Shown in pieces: positions 47,942 to 56,567 of a stretch of DNA of 64,000 nt. The notes beneath the pieces are model-generated. The model was not told the origin of the DNA. It saw only the letters and a program-made list of their open reading frames with translations, and searched no databases. The position numbers and the translations under genes were made by a program. This DNA comes from an uncultured Methanosarcinaceae archaeon (GTDB lineage Archaea; Halobacteriota; Methanosarcinia; Methanosarcinales; Methanosarcinaceae), in assembly GCA_963847185.1 (NCBI GenBank), contig CAWJYV010000001.1, positions 96,001 through 160,000 on the forward strand. Reading direction: 5' to 3'. Every line of letters starts with the position of its first letter. The first letter of the stretch is position 1.

Positions 47942-50107
47942 GTGTTCACAATAGATATTAGTAAAAAGGTTCTGATAATAACTTTGTTGATTTTTGCCGT
48001 TCTTACCACTGCATTTACTTTCACCTATAATATGCAACTTTCTAATTTTTTAGAGCTTGAACAGGCGGACACAATGGAGAATGTAGAAAGGGTACAAAAT
48101 GCAATTTCGACTGAACAGGGATATCTTGATTACCTGGTTGCGGATTGGGCCTGCTGGAATGAGACTTACAGGTTTGTCGAAAATAGGAATCAACTGTTTG
48201 TAGATGAAACTATTGATAATGAAACTCTTGTAGGGCTCAAACTTGACGTGATAATTTTTGTGAATAATTCTGGATCTGTAGTCTACGCAAAATCGGTAGA
48301 CTCCGATACCGGAGAAGAAAAATCGGTTCCCAAGAGCCTTTTTAAACTCATAGAAAACAAAACTATTCTTGTAGAATCCGAAAATAAACCCATTAGAGGT
48401 TTTGTTTTACTCGATGAAGATCCAATGTATATTTCCTGCTATCCTATCCTGACGACAAATATGCAGGGACCTATGAAGGGCACTCTGATTTTTGGGAGAT
48501 ACTTTGACAGCTCTCTTATTGATTCTTTAAAAAAAGTTACACGATCTTCTCTTTTGATGTACAGGGTAGATGAAAATATGCCTCTCGATTTTAAGACAAA
48601 GTTTCACAATTTATCCACGCTTCCTGGTAGGACTATTGTCGAGCCCCTTAGTGAAGAGAGAATAGCAGGTTATTTTGAGTTCAAGGACATTTCAGGCAAG
48701 CCTGCCATTATAATGAGAGCTGATTTCCCAAGAGATCTCTATCAGCATGGAGAAAAAACTCTGAATTACATGTATTTTTTTCTTTTGTTAACCGGGATTA
48801 TGACGGGTGTCGGAGTTAAATTTTCACTTGACAGGTTATTCATTTCAAGATTAGTTGAAATTGATAATTTTGTTACAAAGGTAAGATCGGAAAAGGATCT
48901 TTCCAAAAGATTATTTCTTAAAGATAATGATGAACTCTATCGTTTGTCAAGAGAAATAAATGGAATGCTAAACGAAATTCATTTGATAGAGCAAGAATTA
49001 AAATCACAGGAAAGGGAAAAGAAAGTCCTGCTAGATTCTCTTGAGGAACTAGTTATCTTCATAAATCCTGATCTTAATATAATATGGGCAAACAAGGCTG
49101 CCCTCGGACATATTAAAATGAGCCTCCAAGATGCAGTGGGCAAATGCATAAAATCCATTCCTGACATGAGCGGTGCTTTATCTGAAGACAAGCAAATTGA
49201 ACAAATTTTTTTAATAGGCAACAAAAAATCATGGGAATTTACTTCAAAGGACGACAGGATCTGGTTTGTACAGGCAATCCCGGTTACTGGAGAGGATGGA
49301 AAGATTATAGGTATTATGGTAACCTGTAGAGAGATTACGGAAAGGAAGGTAGCAGAAAAACTTCGACAGGAAAAACAAATTGCAGAAATTGCAAACAGGA
49401 CGAAAAGCGAGTTCCTGGCAAATATGAGCCACGAACTGAGAACCCCACTTAACTCAATAATAGGATTTTCTGACATGCTGTATGAGCAGGCGTATGGAAA
49501 ACTTAGTGAAAAACAATTAAGAGCAGTAGGAAATATATCTAGGAGTGGAAAACATCTACTGGGTCTTATCAATGATATTCTGGATCTTTCAAAAGTGGAA
49601 GCCGGAAAACTTGAACTTGACTATAAAGACTTTGAACTTGCTCCCAAGCTTAGTATGATACAAAATTTGCTGTCTCCAATTGCAGATCGAAAAAATATTA
49701 AAATCGAAATTGATATTGATAGTGAGCTTAAAAGTATCCGTGCGGACGAATCCAGGTTTGCTCAGATCATGTATAACCTTGTGGATAATGCTATTAAGTT
49801 CTCCTATGAAAACAGTCTCATAAAGATTAAGGCAAGAAAAAAGGGAGACCTGGTGGAGATAACAGTTAAAGATACCGGAATGGGTATTAAACTTAAGGAT
49901 CAGAATAAACTTTTTAAACCCTTTAGTCAGATAGATTATTTTTCCTCCAAAAAATTCCAGGGAACGGGGCTCGGTCTTTCATTAGTTAAGCAGATTGTCC
50001 AGTTGCATGGTGGATATGTCTGGTTCAAGAGCAATCTGGAGGAAGGAAGTACTTTTGCATTTACAATTCCAATAAATGGAGATAGAGGCAAAGGAGGAGA
50101 CTTATAA
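47942..50107 (+). CDS. CHASE4-HAMP-PAS sensor histidine kinase
   Basis: DWACWNETY (CHASE4), DELYRL (HAMP), FLANMSHELRTPLN, DNAIKF, GTGLGL. Confidence 0.93.
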   Translation: MFTIDISKKVLIITLLIFAVLTTAFTFTYNMQLSNFLELEQADTMENVERVQNAISTEQGYLDYLVADWACWNETYRFVENRNQLFVDETIDNETLVGLKLDVIIFVNNSGSVVYAKSVDSDTGEEKSVPKSLFKLIENKTILVESENKPIRGFVLLDEDPMYISCYPILTTNMQGPMKGTLIFGRYFDSSLIDSLKKVTRSSLLMYRVDENMPLDFKTKFHNLSTLPGRTIVEPLSEERIAGYFEFKDISGKPAIIMRADFPRDLYQHGEKTLNYMYFFLLLTGIMTGVGVKFSLDRLFISRLVEIDNFVTKVRSEKDLSKRLFLKDNDELYRLSREINGMLNEIHLIEQELKSQEREKKVLLDSLEELVIFINPDLNIIWANKAALGHIKMSLQDAVGKCIKSIPDMSGALSEDKQIEQIFLIGNKKSWEFTSKDDRIWFVQAIPVTGEDGKIIGIMVTCREITERKVAEKLRQEKQIAEIANRTKSEFLANMSHELRTPLNSIIGFSDMLYEQAYGKLSEKQLRAVGNISRSGKHLLGLINDILDLSKVEAGKLELDYKDFELAPKLSMIQNLLSPIADRKNIKIEIDIDSELKSIRADESRFAQIMYNLVDNAIKFSYENSLIKIKARKKGDLVEITVKDTGMGIKLKDQNKLFKPFSQIDYFSSKKFQGTGLGLSLVKQIVQLHGGYVWFKSNLEEGSTFAFTIPINGDRGKGGDL

Positions 50108-50398: not shown

Positions 50399-50596
50399 GC
50401 CCAAATTTGACAGAAGCACATATTGTATAATGTCTAAATGGGCTTCATGCTTTTGTTTTCTGTATACAATTCAAAGTTTTGTTTCGCATCTTATGATTTT
50501 TTAACATTTTTCATTTTACGGAAATGTAATGTGTCGATGAACTTGTTTTGTGTAAGAAAATAATGTATTGATTAACAGAATCTGTCAAATTAGGGT
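50399..50596. mobile_element. MITE (~198 bp)
   Basis: TIR GCCCAAATTTGACAGA / TCTGTCAAATTAGGGT with TCTA on both sides. Confidence 0.7.
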
Positions 50597-50614
50597 TCTA
50601 ACCATATCTTCTAA

Positions 50615-50864
50615 CCGACATTCTGCAGATGTTCTCAAAAAAACAACATTATTCCTGCTATTGATTTTGGAGAATTATTCAAAAATTCTCCAGTTATTAT
50701 CTCAACTGAAGCCTTGAGAATTGGGGTTAAAAGCTTTTATTAAAGGCAAAAAGGGCGAAAATTGGAGGACATTTAAAAAATATTTTTTTGAGTTACCGGG
50801 GTAGTTTCCAAAAAACGCTAGCAGGAAAAATCGTGAAAATTGTCAGACATCTGCGGAAAATCAG
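50615..50864. mobile_element. MITE, same family as 38829-39080
   Basis: CCGACATTCTGCAGATGT ... ACATCTGCGGAAAATCAG and shared interior (TCAACTGAAGCCTTG). Confidence 0.72.
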
Positions 50865-51018
50865 TTGAATTCAGCAAATTGTCACATTTCTGTTCAGACA
50901 GATGTCAGTATTTAAATAACAATTTTTGTACCTTTTTTTAGCTATTAATAAGATTTAAGGTACTTTTTGCCCCAAAAGCGAAATTTAAATATTAACAATG
51001 AATAGGATGTTTTGCCAA

Positions 51019-51032
51019 TTCACAATTGTGAA
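51019..51032. promoter_or_regulatory. Perfect 14-bp palindrome between TATA box and tRNA-Cys 1
   Basis: TTCACAATTGTGAA; TTTAAATATTAA upstream at ~50984. Confidence 0.75.
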
Positions 51033-51042
51033 TATACAAAGT

Positions 51043-51114
51043 GCCAAGATGGCAGAAAGGCTATGCAATGGGCAGCAGATCCATTTAATTTCGGTTCGAA
51101 TCCGAATCTTGGCT
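51043..51114 (+). tRNA. tRNA-Cys(GCA), variant with A33
   Basis: Acceptor GCCAAGA/TCTTGGC, U73, anticodon loop CAGCAGA, T arm TTCGG-TTCGAAT-CCGAA. Confidence 0.85.
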
Positions 51115-51313
51115 TGGGAATTTCTATGTACAGGAGGGAAAGAAAATACTTTGAGTTATCATTCCTGGAACATCTGGAAATTCTCAGAAAAGCACTAAAA
51201 ATGCTGGAAAAACATTAGGAAGGTAGAAAATGAAGAAATATGGGAAAAAATATTGGAACAGATAATATGTGAAGTTAAAGAAGGCAAAAATATGAATTCA
51301 ACAAGGTTAAAGT

Positions 51314-51790
51314 ATGAAAGGAGAGATCGTTAACGGAATACAGAATTCTGTCTTCGATCTGGATGAACATGTCGTTGAAAAGGCCTCGGAGGCTCTTGAC
51401 GATGGATTTACAGTTGAAATAATCTGGGAGGCTCTTGAGCTAATTGAGCTGTATTTTATTTTGCGTATAATGGGGCATTTGCTTCTTGAAGCGGAATATA
51501 TACTTCTCAAAGTTAGAACTAATCCTCTCCATCTGATTGAACAGAAATTTGTTCAAGCTGTAAAAATAATAGGTGGTATCCTTGAAAAAGGGAAATTCCA
51601 ACTATGGCAGATATTTAATATGTATCACATTTCAAAAGGAACAGTGATAAAAGTGCGCAGACAGTTAACAATGGAATCTAAAAAAGATACAGGGTTATAT
51701 GGGAACTTTATCATGGAGTCTGATCGCACATCAACTCGCCCTCTGGTTTCACATGTAACCGAGACTTTAACTTCATCATACTGTTGTTGA
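51314..51790 (+). CDS. Divergent corrinoid-protein cap (B12-binding_2)-like protein or remnant
   Basis: VFDLDE..VEKASEAL..G and NPLHLIEQKFVQAVKIIG..LEKG.F.L.QI resemble methyltransferase corrinoid N-terminal caps; no DxHxxG motif. Confidence 0.45.
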   Translation: MKGEIVNGIQNSVFDLDEHVVEKASEALDDGFTVEIIWEALELIELYFILRIMGHLLLEAEYILLKVRTNPLHLIEQKFVQAVKIIGGILEKGKFQLWQIFNMYHISKGTVIKVRRQLTMESKKDTGLYGNFIMESDRTSTRPLVSHVTETLTSSYCC

Positions 51791-52028
51791 TTGAGACTAT
51801 TATAAACTCCCTAACCTCCTTTTATTTTTTTCTAAGATATCTACTGCACAAAATAATTTTTACCAGAAAACTCTCTTTTTAAGCTGGAATGTTCCATAAA
51901 GTTGTGGTCTCTGCAGTTGTATATTCGTTTTCGATTTCGTTTCTGGCATCAAACATTAGAAATATTTGGATTACTTTTTGCCTTGAAAAGTAGTTTTAAA
52001 TATTAATAATGTGTATGAGTATTATCCA

Positions 52029-52042
52029 TTCACAATTGTGAA
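52029..52042. promoter_or_regulatory. Palindrome before tRNA-Cys 2
   Basis: TTCACAATTGTGAA downstream of TTTAAATATTAA. Confidence 0.75.
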
Positions 52043-52049
52043 TTGATGT

Positions 52050-52121
52050 GCCAGGGTGGCGGAAAGGCTACGCAATGGACTGCAGATCCATTTCATCCCG
52101 ATTCGATTCCGGGCTCTGGCT
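52050..52121 (+). tRNA. tRNA-Cys(GCA), A53.C61 mismatch in T stem
   Basis: GCCAGGG/CTCTGGC, loop CTGCAGA, CCCGA-TTCGATT-CCGGG, U73. Confidence 0.88.
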
Positions 52122-52256
52122 TGAAAGTTTCGTTGCAGGTACTACAAGAAAACTTTTGAAAATTTACAGTTTTCTTCGCCCTTAAATGCCGTAAAAGGCA
52201 TATTTTGCCTTGAAAAAAAGGTTTAAATATTAAAAATGAGTATGACGTGTTGCCAG

Positions 52257-52270
52257 TTCACAATTGTGAA
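52257..52270. promoter_or_regulatory. Palindrome before tRNA-Cys 3
   Basis: TTCACAATTGTGAA downstream of TTTAAATATTAA. Confidence 0.75.
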
Positions 52271-52277
52271 TTGATGT

Positions 52278-52349
52278 GCCAGGGTGGCGGAAAGGCTACG
52301 CAATGGACTGCAGATCCATTTCATCCCGGTTCGATTCCGGGCTCTGGCT
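52278..52349 (+). tRNA. tRNA-Cys(GCA)
   Basis: Canonical cloverleaf, loop CTGCAGA (G37), CCCGG-TTCGATT-CCGGG, U73. Confidence 0.95.
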
Positions 52350-52468
52350 TAAAAGTTTTCTCATAAAGGTTAGCAGAAAACTTTTAGCAAGAAAATTCCA
52401 GGGCTCTTTTTGCTCAGAAGGAGGCTCAAGAAGAATAAACAAATAAGAAATAAACAGCAAATAAAACC

Positions 52469-52482
52469 TTCACAATTGTGAA
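52469..52482. promoter_or_regulatory. Fourth TTCACAATTGTGAA palindrome, upstream of tRNA-Cys 4 and pscS
   Basis: Exact match, not immediately followed by a tRNA. Confidence 0.65.
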
Positions 52483-52593
52483 GCATAATGGCGCCAGTCA
52501 ACAAATGACTCAACTAAAAAGGTATGAAACACTCCCATTCGTAGATGAACAGACAAAACACGACTCATAAAACCCACAACCAAATTTGTGCAA

Positions 52594-52718
52594 CTCACTT
52601 TCCGCAGAAATCCACAAAATAATACCCTTCCACTCAATATGGGTATAGCCCTAAATTTTATTAGTAATATAACTATTGGGCAAATCACTCCTCAATTGTG
52701 TACATCTGCGGAACAGTG
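52594..52718. mobile_element. Short MITE related to the 38829-39080 family
   Basis: TTCCGCAGAAATCCACAA / TTGTGTACATCTGCGGAA inverted ends. Confidence 0.6.
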
Positions 52719-52745
52719 TGTATAATATAAAAAACCAGAAAAGAT

Positions 52746-52817
52746 GCTGTGATGGCGGAAAGGCTACGCGGTGGACTGCAAATCCATTACATCCCGGTTC
52801 GATTCCGGGTCTCAGCT
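52746..52817 (+). tRNA. tRNA-Cys(GCA), divergent (A37, U5.U68 mismatch), 12 nt before pscS
   Basis: GCTGTGA/TCTCAGC, loop CTGCAAA, CCCGG-TTCGATT-CCGGG, U73. Confidence 0.9.
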
Positions 52818-52829
52818 TAGGGGTAATAT

Positions 52830-54218
52830 ATGGATATAAGAACACAAAAAACATTTGAGGCACTTTTTGCCCTTGAAGATATTAGGGAGACTCTTAGACA
52901 AACACTTCCAAATATCACAAGTCCAGAAGAAGAGCATGCCATTAAAGAAGGCGTGAGCAAAGTCAGAAAAATTCTGGATGATATCGAGAACGATACCGGA
53001 ACCCCGGACATAAGAAAAATAGCTGATAATATTGATATTCGGTCCAGAGAAGAAACATACATCAATATACAGCCGATCCAGGCAGCTGGAAGGCTTACAC
53101 CAGAAGCAAGAAAAGCTCTAATAGCATATGGCGATGGCTACTCCACCTGTGATGCCTGCCGAAAACCTTTCAGGCTAGACAAAATAAGCAGTCCGCCTAT
53201 CGCTCCATTTCATGAACAACTCGCTAGCTTCGTTAATATGGATGTTGCTCGAGTAGTACCAGGCGCTAGAAGAGGATTCCAGGCAGTGGCATCCACTCTG
53301 GTCAATAAAGGAGATTTAGTAATAGTTTCATCCCTTGCTCATTATACAGAATTCCTTGCAGTAGAAGAAGCAGGAGGAATAGTTAGAGAAGTGCCCTTAA
53401 ACGAGCACAATCTTGTAACTGCAGATGCAACTGCTGAGAAAATTGAAGCAGTTAAGCAGGAAACAGGTAAACTGCCTGTACTGGTAATGATCGACCATTT
53501 TGATTACCAGTATGCCAATGAGCACGATGTAAAAAGCATTGCAAAAGTTGCGCACCAGTATGATATTCCTCTCCTGTATAACGGAGCATATACTGTTGGA
53601 GTAAGGCCAGTTGATGGAAAAGATATCGGTGCGGACTTCATCGTGGGTTCAGGCCACAAAAGCATGGCATCACCTGCACCGTCTGGAGTACTGGCAACAA
53701 CCGAGGAATGGGCTCCGAAAGTATTCCGCACAACTCAGATGACAGGTGATCTCACAAAACGCAAGTTTGGTGTAAAAGAAGTCGAGATGCTTGGCTGCAC
53801 ACTAATGGGCTCAACATTGCTGGGTATGATGGCTTCGTTCCCTACAGTTAAGGAGAGAGTAAAGAACTGGGAAGACGAGTTAAAAAAATCGAATTATCTG
53901 ATCGATGGGTTGCTTGCTATAGAAGGCAGTAAAGTAGTCTCAGAGTACCCACGAAAACATACCCTCTCCAAAGTTGACACAAGCAAGAGCTTTGATCTTA
54001 TAGCCCAGGAGCATAAACGAAGAGGTTTCTTCCTTTCAGACGAACTTTCAAGCAAGGGCATTGTCGGAGAATTTGCAGGAGCCACACGCGTTTGGAAACT
54101 TAACACATACGGGCTTTCATGGGAGAAAGTTCGCTATGTAGTAGATACATTCCAGGAAATTGCTGAAAAATACAAACTTCAGGTAAACAAGGAGAAGAAT
54201 TCCAATGGTAACAAATAA
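52830..54218 (+). CDS. pscS: O-phosphoseryl-tRNA:Cys-tRNA synthase (SepCysS) with ~60-aa N-terminal extension
   Basis: [21 protein letters not shown] (CxxC), [13 protein letters not shown] (PLP lysine), EMLGCT, KLNTYGL. Confidence 0.93.
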
Positions 54219-55500
54219 CTATAAACTGGGAACACTTGCCCTTCACGCTGGACAGGTTCCGGACCCCACAACAGGATCACGTACAGTACCGATATATCAG
54301 ACAACATCGTATGTTTTCAGGGATACTGACCATGCAGCCAACCTTTTTGGCCTTAAAGAGCTTGGCAACATCTACACCCGTATAATGAATCCTACTACTG
54401 ACGTTTTTGAACAGCGCATAGCTGCTATTGAGGGTGGAACCGGCGCTCTTGGAGTCGCTTCCGGCTCGGCAGCAATAACTTATGCCCTGTTAGCGATTAC
54501 GCGGATAGGGGACGAAATAATATCCGGAAACAACCTCTACGGGGGAACCTATGAACTTTTCAATTACACTTTCCCCAAGCTGGGAAGAAAAGTAACATTT
54601 GTAGATTCGACTGATATAGAAGCCTACCAAAAGGCAGTCAATGAAAAGACCAGGGCTATTTATATTGAGTCTGTTGGAAACCCTAAACTTGATATTCCGG
54701 ATTTTGAGGCAATTGCAGATATTGCTCACAGAGCCGGAGTTCCGCTTGTTGTAGACAATACAAGTGCTGTAGGACTTGTCCGGCCCATTGATCATGGAGC
54801 AGATATTGTTGTACATTCTGCAACCAAATTCATTGGCGGGCATGGAAACTCAATTGGAGGTTCAATTGTCGATTCCGGAAAGTTCTCCTGGAACAACGGC
54901 AAGTTCCCGGAATTAACAGATCCTGATCCAAGCTACCATGGTTTAAAATACTGGGATACCTTTTCAGATTTTCCTGGGCTTGGGAATGTGGCATTTGTCT
55001 TTAAAGTAAGGTTGCAGCTTCTTCGAGACACAGGTGCTGCGATTTCACCTTTTAATTCGTTCCTGCTGCTTCAGGGACTTGAAACCCTGCATCTAAGGAT
55101 ACAGAGACACTCAGAAAACGCCCTCAAGGTAGCACAATATCTTTCAAAACATCCTAAGGTCTCATGGGTCAATTATCCCGGTTTACCGGATCATCCAAGC
55201 CATAAACTTGCATCCAGATATCTCAAAGGCGGATATGGTGCGTTGCTGGGTTTCGGCGTGAAAGGCGGTGCTGAAGCAGGTAAAAAGTTTATTAACAATC
55301 TGGAACTGTTTTCACACGTCGCAAATATCGGAGATTCAAAGAGCCTCGTTATTCATCCTGCAACTACCACACATCAGCAGCTTACGCCGGCTGAGCAGGA
55401 AGCTACAGGTGTTAAACCGGATTATATACGCCTTTCCATAGGTATTGAGGATATAGAAGATATAATCTCAGATCTAAAACAAGCTCTGGAGAAAGTGTAA
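54205..55500 (+). CDS. metY: O-acetylhomoserine aminocarboxypropyltransferase / sulfhydrylase
   Basis: [54 protein letters not shown]; overlaps pscS by 14 nt. Confidence 0.92.
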
Positions 55501-55560
55501 CTGGCCTTATGCCAGTGGGCACTAATGCCGATTTATATAGAAACATTACAAAAAGAAATG

Positions 55561-55590
55561 GTATTTTGATGAGTTACATCTCATCAATAC
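55561..55590. terminator. Hairpin between metY and pdxS
   Basis: TTGATGAG-TTACAT-CTCATCAA. Confidence 0.4.
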
Positions 55591-55660
55591 AACCTTGCTA
55601 CTACTTTCATTACTCTTATTTTACAATTCTTTTTTAAATATTATTTAGATAAACAAACGG

Positions 55661-56567
55661 ATGACATTCATGGACTTCGAAAAATTACGACACGGGACCG
55701 AACTTATCAAGCGGGGCTTTGCACGGATGCAGAAAGGGGGTGTGATCATGGACGTTACAACTCCCGAACAGGCCCGGATCGCAGAAGAAGCCGGAGCAGT
55801 TGCCGTTATGGCTCTTCAGGCTGTCCCCGCAGATATCAGGAAAGCCGGGGGAGTTGCCCGGATGGCAGACCCTGAAATCGTTCAAAAAATCATTGATACG
55901 GTCACAATTCCTGTAATGGCAAAAGCCAGGATCGGGCACTTCGTAGAGGCTGAAATATCTAGAAGCCCTTGGCGTTGACATGGTGGACGAATCAGAAGTC
56001 CTGACCCCTGCTGACCCTTACTACCACATAGACAAGACACAGTTTACCGTTCCTTTTGTCTGCGGAGCCAGAAACCTTGGAGAAGCTCTTCGCAGAATTA
56101 ATGAAGGGGCAGCCATGATCCGGACAAAAGGAGAAGCCGGAACTGGAGATGTCAGCCAGGCAGTAAAGCACATGAAGCAGATTCAGGGAGAAATCCGTGC
56201 CCTTGCCGGAAAAACCAAAGAAGAACTCATTCTGGTTGCAAGGGAAATAGAAGCTCCTATAGAACTTGTTGTCGAAACCGCAAAAATGCAGCGCCTTCCG
56301 GTAGTAAACTTTGCAGCAGGCGGAGTTGCAACTCCTGCAGATGCAGCACTTATGATGCGCCTTGGAGCAGACGGAGTTTTTGTGGGCTCAGGAATTTTCA
56401 AAGCCGAAAACCCTGAAAAGATGGCAAAGGCAATTGTTGAAGCAGTCAACAACTTTGACAACCCTGCAAAACTAGCAGAAATCTCAAAAGGCGTGGGTGC
56501 AGGCATGAAAGGCATCAGCGCAGATATGATCCCTGCTGCAGAAGCTCTCCAGGAACGCGGGTGGTAA
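55661..56567 (+). pseudogene. pdxS: PLP synthase lyase subunit with a single frameshift near 55958 (possibly an assembly error)
   Basis: [22 protein letters not shown] then [39 protein letters not shown]. Confidence 0.9.

Follow-up and report, generated by a model that had tools for sequence, protein, structure and literature searches.

The DNA analysed here, referred to as the window, is a stretch of 64,000 nucleotides (nt) from an uncultured Methanosarcinaceae archaeon and corresponds to positions 96001-160000 of contig C1 in a 4.04 Mb, 10-contig genome that is 99.8% complete (C denotes contigs of this genome, G genomes, g genera and L loci of this genome and its relatives). The only tRNA genes that ARAGORN detects in the window are four plus-strand genes for tRNA-Cys(GCA), and the subject of this work is the perfect 14-base-pair (bp) palindrome TTCACAATTGTGAA that accompanies them. 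tRNAs 1 to 4 occupy positions 51043..51114, 52050..52121, 52278..52349 and 52746..52817 and score 48.1, 49.0, 55.0 and 54.5 bits, respectively, with Rfam model RF00005 (gathering score 29). Exact copies of the palindrome, to which no strand is assigned, lie at 51019..51032, 52029..52042, 52257..52270 and 52469..52482. The first three end 10, 7 and 7 nt 5' of tRNAs 1 to 3, and each of them is preceded by a TATA box of the type TTTAAATATTAA on the plus strand, i.e. at 50984..50995, 51995..52002 and 52222..52229, starting 35, 34 and 35 nt before the respective palindrome. The fourth copy is located 263 nt upstream of tRNA 4, which ends 12 nt before the ATG of pscS2, a gene for an accessory SepCysS paralog (52830..54218, plus strand). 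The latter overlaps by 14 nt with metY, encoding O-acetylhomoserine sulfhydrylase, that is homocysteine synthase (54205..55500, plus strand). A preliminary description made from the letters of the window alone had set out this arrangement of four tRNA genes, three own boxes and palindromes 7-10 nt ahead of a tRNA, a fourth palindrome and overlapping pscS and metY genes, and it holds in each of these points, including all coordinates that it gave.

Scanning of the window for TTCACAATTGTGAA with up to two mismatches yielded four matches as compared to a mean of 0.69 in shuffled sequences, and four matches were reached in 1 of 100 shuffles. The complete set of contigs carries seven exact copies, where a dinucleotide model predicts 0.047, and five more copies with one mismatch, which places TTCACAATTGTGAA third in frequency among all perfect 14-bp palindromes of the genome; the commonest one is ACTCAGATCTGAGT with 12 copies. 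A genome-wide search and its extension across Methanosarcina, as the preliminary description had suggested, revealed conservation. The comparison covered 59 genus genomes including the own one, 121 genomes sampled from 16 genera of the family, and 16 more that belong to five other families of the same order. The exact 14-mer is present in 51/59 genus genomes and in 42/121 sampled family genomes, where it occurs in six of the 16 genera (Methanosarcina and five more), and it was found in none of the 16 genomes from the five other families. A reversed-pattern control gave no match in the own genome and none in all 59 genus genomes.

Beyond the window, the palindromes of the own genome reside at promoters without homology to tRNA genes. 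Pairs of copies precede metX-CBS (C10:183675 and 183694), an open reading frame (ORF) of 95 amino acids (aa) followed by an 88-aa winged-helix gene (C9:34176 and 34205; orf95-wHTH88 hereafter) and the gene row rSAM-ABC-CobW-FeS-HcyBio (C1:227387 and 227411), and single copies are present upstream of cooS (C1:232643) and upstream of a decayed pseudo-tRNA that is followed by a weak tRNA-Cys (C1:218093). To see which genes recur, the neighbours of the sites in relatives were mapped and named by Pfam and NCBIfam. Recurrent arrangements are palindrome, tRNA-Cys and pscS2-metY; two palindromes, tRNA-Cys and metY2-metX; a small gene for a helix-turn-helix (HTH) protein with conserved cysteines, designated HTH-Cys, that is divergent from iscS2-iscU2-nadA with palindromes in between; and an operon for a PP-loop protein, a cysteine desulfurase, FdhD, ThiM and ThiE. 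HcyBio (in the own genome behind rSAM-ABC-CobW-FeS), cooS and orf95-wHTH88 are further recurrent targets. In other genera, nadA is followed by two palindromes, tRNA-Cys and pscS2 (g23), HcyBio is preceded by a palindrome (g16), palindromes flank a small gene beside ThiF or iscS2, with tRNA-Cys and pscS2 coming next (g18), and two palindromes stand before tRNA-Cys and a CysRS-like ORF (g17). The theme of this putative regulon is sulfur incorporation into homocysteine, cysteine, iron-sulfur (Fe-S) clusters and thiamine. One of the target clusters, iscS2-iscU2 of M. acetivorans, has been described as lying together with genes for methionine and NAD biosynthesis (PMC7585200), in a paper that contains no mention of a tRNA or of a regulator. 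As a separate observation, 9 of the 12 sites with at most one mismatch, and five of the seven exact ones, fall within 86 kb (C1:147000-234100), a region that also holds HcyBio, rSAM-ABC-CobW, cooS and a tRNA-Thr_ED gene and therefore has the look of a sulfur island; the sites of G004 are clustered similarly.

For analysis of promoter geometry, all sites were aligned on the palindrome and a TATA box was called when at least seven of eight positions matched TTTAWATA. The box starts 34-36 nt upstream of the palindrome in 26 site-orientations and exactly 35 nt upstream in 22, while any other distance is represented six times or less. These promoters belong to a ~70-nt cassette with the order tttttgcc, A-run, TTTAAATAttaa, gagtatga, tgttgccag and palindrome, which is found ahead of the array tRNAs (the box of tRNA 1 forms part of it), of cooS and of several leaders opening with decayed tRNA-Cys remnants. 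A second promoter type, represented by iscS2, metY2, metX and orf95, has one copy of the palindrome 0-3 nt past the TATA box and another one 19-30 nt further downstream. The palindrome thus keeps a fixed position relative to the TATA box, and it is conserved among species at promoters that are related in function and not by homology.

In archaeal promoters, the TATA box is centred near -26/-27. With this geometry, transcription from the cassette promoters would start ~5 nt before the palindrome, placing palindrome 1 at ~+5 to +18 of the pre-tRNA 1 transcript. The palindrome may then act as RNA, forming within the 5' leaders of the mRNAs and of pre-tRNA-Cys a hairpin that serves processing, stability or protein binding. 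In line with this idea, the predicted start precedes the palindrome at all 26 cassette promoters, a 6-bp hairpin is part of the minimum-energy structure, and palindrome 4 is covered by contigs from RNA libraries. These metatranscriptome contigs, which have small shares (≤0.12), make bridging between features visible, yet neither starts, strands nor levels; uncovered parts carry no meaning, and a contig is no proof of one continuous transcript or of an origin from RNA. Two of them, from two RNA libraries, span 52362-52578, between tRNA 3 and the leader of tRNA 4, with 99.5-100% identity. Since one of these two runs into adapter sequence at 52578, a discrete RNA of ~210 nt that includes palindrome 4 may exist. 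However, the first copy at iscS2, metY2, metX and orf95 lies ahead of any plausible transcription start, and it is chiefly for this reason that we favour a DNA operator over an RNA element. Moreover, the spacing of tandem copies is variable (19-52 nt), sites are present on both sides of the HTH-Cys gene, and the frequent variants TTCACGATTGTGAA and TTCACTATTGTGAA are asymmetric single changes that break the pairing. Finally, the distance between palindrome and tRNA ranges from 5 to 43 nt, whereas the distance to the TATA box is fixed. A function at the RNA level therefore appears improbable to us.

Alternatively, the palindromes at the tRNA genes could be passengers of a duplicating unit composed of tRNA-Cys and its promoter cassette, which propagates itself and assigns no present regulatory role to the sites at the tRNAs. 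Indeed, the entire 70-nt cassette has been copied rather than the palindrome alone, decayed pseudo-tRNA-Cys genes are left behind the cassette at C1:218093 and C10:183694 as well as in relatives (L034, L036, L039), and the arrays of close species differ in the number and sequence of their members. Against this stands that the palindrome is the best conserved block of the cassettes, being mostly exact while the flanks vary, that the junction between the proximal tRNA and pscS2 has been retained in 26/30 loci, and that the same 14-mer is found at promoters without homology to the cassette and in other genera. Its presence at unrelated sulfur genes across genus and family argues that the palindrome is not a mere by-product of tRNA duplication, and we consider the passenger scenario very improbable.

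Overall, TTCACAATTGTGAA is probably the operator of a family-wide sulfur-assimilation regulon that includes an accessory class of tRNA-Cys genes as well as SepCysS2, and for which HTH-Cys is the candidate regulator. According to this model, a dimeric regulator would bind to TTCACAATTGTGAA downstream of the TATA box, either ahead of the start site or just overlapping it, and thereby block transcription. The 70-nt cassette would drive expression of the accessory tRNA-Cys genes and, via tRNA 4 as a co-transcribed leader, also of SepCysS2 and MetY. RNase P and RNase Z would subsequently release the tRNA, leaving a pscS2-metY mRNA with a leader of 12 nt. The same operator would also control metX, HcyBio, iscS2-iscU2-nadA, the cysteine desulfurase-FdhD-ThiM-ThiE operon, cooS and the orf95-wHTH operon. 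As a consequence of the common operator, the extra tRNA-Cys species and the tRNA-dependent route to cysteine would be switched together with sulfur trafficking to homocysteine, Fe-S clusters and thiamine. We infer both repression and responsiveness to sulfur. The preliminary description had viewed the amplified tRNA as a metabolic carrier, a logic that is weakened because metY-metX operons, whose products have no use for tRNA-Cys, are headed by the palindrome-tRNA unit as well.

The likeliest candidate for the regulator is HTH-Cys, a Cro/XRE-like protein of ~110-120 aa (110-122 aa in the individual genomes), whose gene is flanked by palindromes and which might sense sulfur or Fe-S status through four cysteines. 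These cysteines are invariant in 17 orthologs from eight genera. Of the 18 orthologs from seven other genera, 14 have the 12-nt core of the palindrome with at most one mismatch within ~205 nt upstream of their start, and these upstream sites would be the signature of an autoregulated repressor. Co-occurrence points in the same direction, with the reservation that related genomes are not independent and the counts thus overstate the statistical weight. In the genus, ortholog and exact palindrome are both present in 49 genomes and both absent from five, whereas three genomes contain the ortholog only and two the palindrome only; the three genomes with ortholog and without exact palindrome retain one-mismatch sites beside the HTH-Cys gene. 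For the other genera, where an ortholog-level match was defined by a cut of E 1e-23 chosen by us, such a match is present in 25/25 genomes with the palindrome, and the palindrome is present in 0/43 genomes without such a match. The contrast is also seen within single genera, with two genomes having both and four neither in g23, and ten having both and one neither in g26. Source annotations refer to the protein only as 'transcriptional regulator' or 'HTH cro/C1-type domain' protein.

Several observations weigh against this interpretation. First, an HTH-Cys ortholog is absent from the own genome despite its completeness and its 12 sites with at most one mismatch, and G015 (75% complete) likewise keeps sites without the ortholog. 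Conversely, 33/76 family genomes lacking the exact palindrome still carry the ortholog; they may use variant sites. The candidate itself matches HTH families only below threshold (Pfam HTH_3 with E 0.003 and 18 bits at a cut-off of 23; P22_Cro with E 0.0037), belongs to no NCBIfam family and has no significant relative among PDB sequences, i.e. no solved relative. In addition, a connection with sulfur is not evident for cooS and for a polysaccharide-gene leader, the cassette palindrome is predicted to be transcribed and able to fold, and the RNA-library contigs crossing palindrome 4 indicate that transcription is not fully stopped there. Finally, the defects of the tRNA copies described below and the weak tRNA 5 (C1:218650), which scores 34.6 bits only, fit birth-and-death of copies as well as adaptive amplification. 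The earlier proposal of one sulfur-responsive repressor stands as far as the operator shared by the tRNA-Cys genes and the sulfur theme of the regulon are concerned, whereas the best candidate gene for this repressor is missing from the very genome in question.

How this situation may have arisen is suggested by comparison with the closest relative, G009, which still carries the HTH-Cys gene. At C10:183600-184110 (L013:3600-4110), the region upstream of metX in the own genome contains two palindromes and a decayed pseudo-tRNA-Cys, and of metY2 a C-terminal remnant of 43 aa is left there. It would seem that the iscS2-iscU2-nadA-tRNA-metY2 block was deleted together with the regulator gene. In the own genome, either another protein would bind the sites or the regulon would be constitutively on, with the sites being young relics.

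The operator may also be real and be bound by a different protein, here or generally. Candidates are wHTH88 (88 aa; C9:34826-35092) and a 119-aa paralog of HTH-Cys (C8:439633-439992), which with 40% identity is the only relative of HTH-Cys in the own genome. This alternative would account for the sites kept in the own genome without the ortholog. Furthermore, the wHTH88 operon of the own genome carries two palindromes, every wHTH88 gene whose position was compared has a palindrome ~0.3-0.9 kb upstream, g16 included, and genomes with wHTH88 contain 2-14 sites as compared to 0-8 in those without. The paralog, in turn, shares the four cysteines with HTH-Cys and differs little from it in the recognition helix. 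However, it also occurs where the palindrome is wholly absent (G012, g13, g24, g25), and the complete genomes G002 and G014 have the palindrome without wHTH88. As a general binder, wHTH88 was rejected, being encoded in only 24/59 genus genomes as compared to 51/59 for the palindrome. Taking both sides into account, we regard a binder other than HTH-Cys as rather unlikely.

We now turn to the tRNAs that would be subject to this control. The own genome has 64 tRNA genes, ten of which encode tRNA-Cys. Four housekeeping copies (C8:1424-2517), scoring 53.5-54.6 bits with RF00005, have ordinary promoters and no palindrome; the operator is found only at the accessory class, to which the divergent tRNA-Cys genes of the window belong. 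Among the latter, only tRNA 3 is canonical throughout, with U33, G37 and G53:C61, and an identical copy is present in G009. The other three deviate: tRNA 1 has A33 in place of the usual U33, which is otherwise near-universal and which is also replaced by A in the ortholog of G009 (L037:2861-2932); tRNA 2 has G37 and an A53.C61 mismatch in the T stem; and tRNA 4, representing the pscS-proximal class, has A37 and a U5.U68 mismatch. The preliminary description had raised the possibility that the tandem genes are an assembly artefact. This is unlikely because tRNAs 2 and 3, which differ by a single base, have dissimilar flanks and because similar arrays, with one to three tRNA-Cys genes upstream of the same pscS paralog, are present on single contigs in relatives (G004, G046, G073, G074). 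All four tRNAs have the GCA anticodon, and the terminal U73 is invariant in 27 copies from own and related genomes. Both features are described as tRNA-Cys identity elements (PMC8762117). Moreover, 16 of the 22 predicted pairs exhibit compensatory changes among the 27 copies. This covariation and the invariant U73 argue that the accessory copies are maintained as real tRNAs.

The A37 of tRNA 4 recurs in 19/26 pscS2-proximal tRNAs and also in the class that precedes metY2-metX. A 1-methylguanosine at this position (m1G37) is a feature of archaeal tRNAs. For methanogen SepRS, m1G37 has been reported as a determinant, and the M. maripaludis enzyme charged A37 tRNAs as well (PMC5424206). Both SepRS and CysRS are encoded in the own genome. 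It is conceivable, if on the whole doubtful, that the accessory tRNA-Cys species, above all the A37 leaders of pscS2 and metY-metX, are non-ribosomal scaffolds, as opposed to added capacity for translation, that are produced together with SepCysS2 when the supply of sulfur or Fe-S clusters is low. In that case, the tRNA would carry the assembly of cysteine or a persulfide, to be freed for metabolism afterwards, a new repressor of a Cys4-HTH type that senses Fe-S clusters or thiols would act as the switch, and the own genome would represent a natural constitutive mutant. Two unusual relatives of the accessory tRNA loci may be mentioned here. In G022 (L057:6326-6396), a tRNA-Cys body with a palindrome-bearing promoter has a GTA (Tyr) anticodon, and in G095 of genus g17 (L121:2349-4053), two palindrome-like sites and a tRNA-Cys are followed by the CysRS-like ORF, which is 38% identical to the own CysRS.

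Assignment of pscS2 to the SepCysS family rests on matches to PRK09331 (636.3 bits; cut-off 301), TIGR02539 (413 bits; cut-off 365.25) and Pfam. The protein comprises 462 aa and shares 42% identity with the housekeeping SepCysS (388 aa, C8:87915-89006). Its N-terminal extension of ~60-76 aa lies outside the family models, and residues 1-80 retrieved nothing below E 0.24 from PDB sequences and no SepCysE. A pscS2-type match is present in 30 of the 57 genus genomes with any SepCysS match. The metY product is recognized by PF01053 Cys_Met_Meta_PP (462 bits) and TIGR01326 (674 bits; cut-off 495). The end of the tRNA-Cys gene is separated from the pscS2 ATG by 10-14 nt in 22/30 loci and by 38-41 nt in four more, and a palindrome with at most one mismatch is found within 1.5 kb upstream in 26/30 loci. 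Since the 12 nt in the own genome are too short to accommodate a promoter, pscS2-metY must be transcribed through tRNA 4. In agreement with this, RNA-library contigs from two studies bridge tRNA 4 and pscS2 (X1 record 3, 52399-53023; X3 record 17, 52739-53251).

Palindrome 4 differs from the other copies in its surroundings. Its position is conserved, with ~260-290 nt separating it from the pscS-proximal tRNA and ~181-247 nt (in most loci 201-213 nt) from palindrome 3 on its upstream side, and a conserved TATA box 35 nt upstream is lacking. Because of this and of the RNA-library contigs covering the region, palindrome 4 is probably a second or internal operator and not part of a promoter. It is followed by a leader reaching to tRNA 4 (52483..52745, plus strand) that is conserved in an alignment of 15 loci and in which a 16-bp inverted repeat (arms at 52602-52617 and 52696-52711) encloses two small hairpins. 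In a motif search, the corresponding element of ~120 nt (52596-52716) was detected in 15/30 pscS2 loci. A compensatory change was observed in one arm pair only, the fold of the whole leader has a z-score of -1.6, and searching 50500-53000 against Rfam with E up to 1 retrieved just the four tRNAs and a chance miRNA match, that is no leader family. The inner ends of the repeat (CCGCAGAA.TCCACAA ... TTGTGTACATCTGCGG) resemble half-sites of the palindrome, and two loci retain the arms without the inner 70 nt.

The preliminary description had extended the cluster to PdxS, on the grounds that both SepCysS and MetY need pyridoxal phosphate (PLP). The gene order pscS-metY-pdxS holds, with pscS being the accessory paralog and pdxS a frameshifted second copy (55661..56567, plus strand). 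Its two parts (55661-55978 and 55980-56567) are separated by a frameshift near 55955-55980, so that the PdxS (SOR_SNZ) domain is split over two frames, covering profile positions 3-87 and 95-207, and no single intact frame exists. A gap of 160 nt follows metY, in which the copy has a TATA-like TTTAAATATTA box of its own (55634-55645) and no palindrome, and an intact pdxS is present elsewhere in the genome (C2:36115-36729). For these reasons, the argument from PLP supply is weak, and membership of pdxS in the unit is unsupported.

Linkage of tRNA-Cys, SepCysS and sulfur genes, which the preliminary description suspected to be known, has indeed been published for the loci of clade VII SepCysS (Mukai et al. 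2017, mBio, PMC5424206), where a SepCysE-like domain is fused to the N-terminus of some copies. With the loci presented in that paper, the own genome shares the tRNA, metY, a long N-terminus and the tRNA-Thr_ED gene (C1:233663-234091). A shared operator, a regulon extending beyond the locus and a regulator are not reported in that paper, whose main text is free of the words promoter, palindrom- and regulat- (PMC5424206). A literature search outside subscription journals retrieved nothing on the motif, on a sulfur regulon in Methanosarcina or on its regulator, in agreement with the earlier impression that the shared operator was new. The letters of the 14-mer gave no literature match, and shorter strings matched only in unrelated papers. 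Thus, the linkage is known, whereas we found no report of the operator, the regulon and the regulator candidate.

The proposed regulon has parallels in several well-studied systems. In methanogens, NrpR represses nif and glnA operons by binding to palindromes at or after the TATA box. Similarly, TTCACAATTGTGAA is a short perfect palindrome that occurs singly or in tandem behind the TATA box, either ahead of the start or overlapping it, in a number of operons belonging to the same pathway. It differs in its sequence, in the pathway and in the candidate protein, which is Cro/XRE-like with four cysteines, and its targets include tRNA genes. Bacterial IscR, CymR and SufR, the first and last of which bind an Fe-S cluster through cysteine ligands, provide examples of one autoregulated regulator governing cysteine desulfurase and scaffold genes together with cysteine metabolism, reminiscent of the candidate gene divergent from iscS2-iscU2. 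However, no sequence relationship to these proteins was found, the mechanism would be occlusion of an archaeal promoter rather than control of sigma-70 promoters, and tRNA genes and SepCysS are part of the regulon. The T-box leaders of bacterial cysteine genes also unite tRNA-Cys and cysteine biosynthesis in one regulatory unit. In the present case, by contrast, an entire tRNA gene resides in the leader and a DNA operator is conserved, with neither a specifier and antiterminator structure nor an Rfam match. In the tufB operon of E. coli, tRNA genes lie 5' of a protein gene in one transcript and tRNA processing sets the 5' end of the mRNA. Unlike there, the tRNA here is the substrate scaffold of the enzyme encoded by the adjacent gene, and the unit carries an operator.

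Little is known about how methanogens control sulfur assimilation, or about why two routes to Cys-tRNA, two SepCysS enzymes and numerous tRNA-Cys genes are maintained in Methanosarcina. With one 14-bp site and a named candidate protein, sulfur regulation in methanogens becomes directly testable. Should our model be correct, it would provide a clear example of isoacceptor tRNA genes being governed by an operator specific to one pathway and of a tRNA gene that doubles as a processed mRNA leader for the enzyme acting on that tRNA. In addition, the list of targets would tie the less understood HcyBio, rSAM-ABC-CobW, cooS, orf95 and orf158 to sulfur trafficking. The last of these, orf158 (51314..51790, plus strand), lies between tRNAs 1 and 2 and accompanies the accessory pscS module. 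Neither Pfam nor NCBIfam assigns its product to a family, and the Atlas gave no match. It is found in 22/59 genus genomes, and each match whose position was compared adjoins a pscS2 locus. As a candidate for the regulator it was rejected, given these 22 genomes versus 51/59 with the palindrome.

Two further features of the locus were noticed. Directly upstream of the tRNA array, the window contains a gene for a sensor kinase of the architecture CHASE4-PAS-HisKA-HATPase (47942-50107). Moreover, the sequence ATCTGCGGAA occurs in 28 copies in the own genome, as compared to 6.2 expected from base composition, and copies are located at ~50851 upstream of tRNA 1 and at ~52703 in the pscS2 leader.

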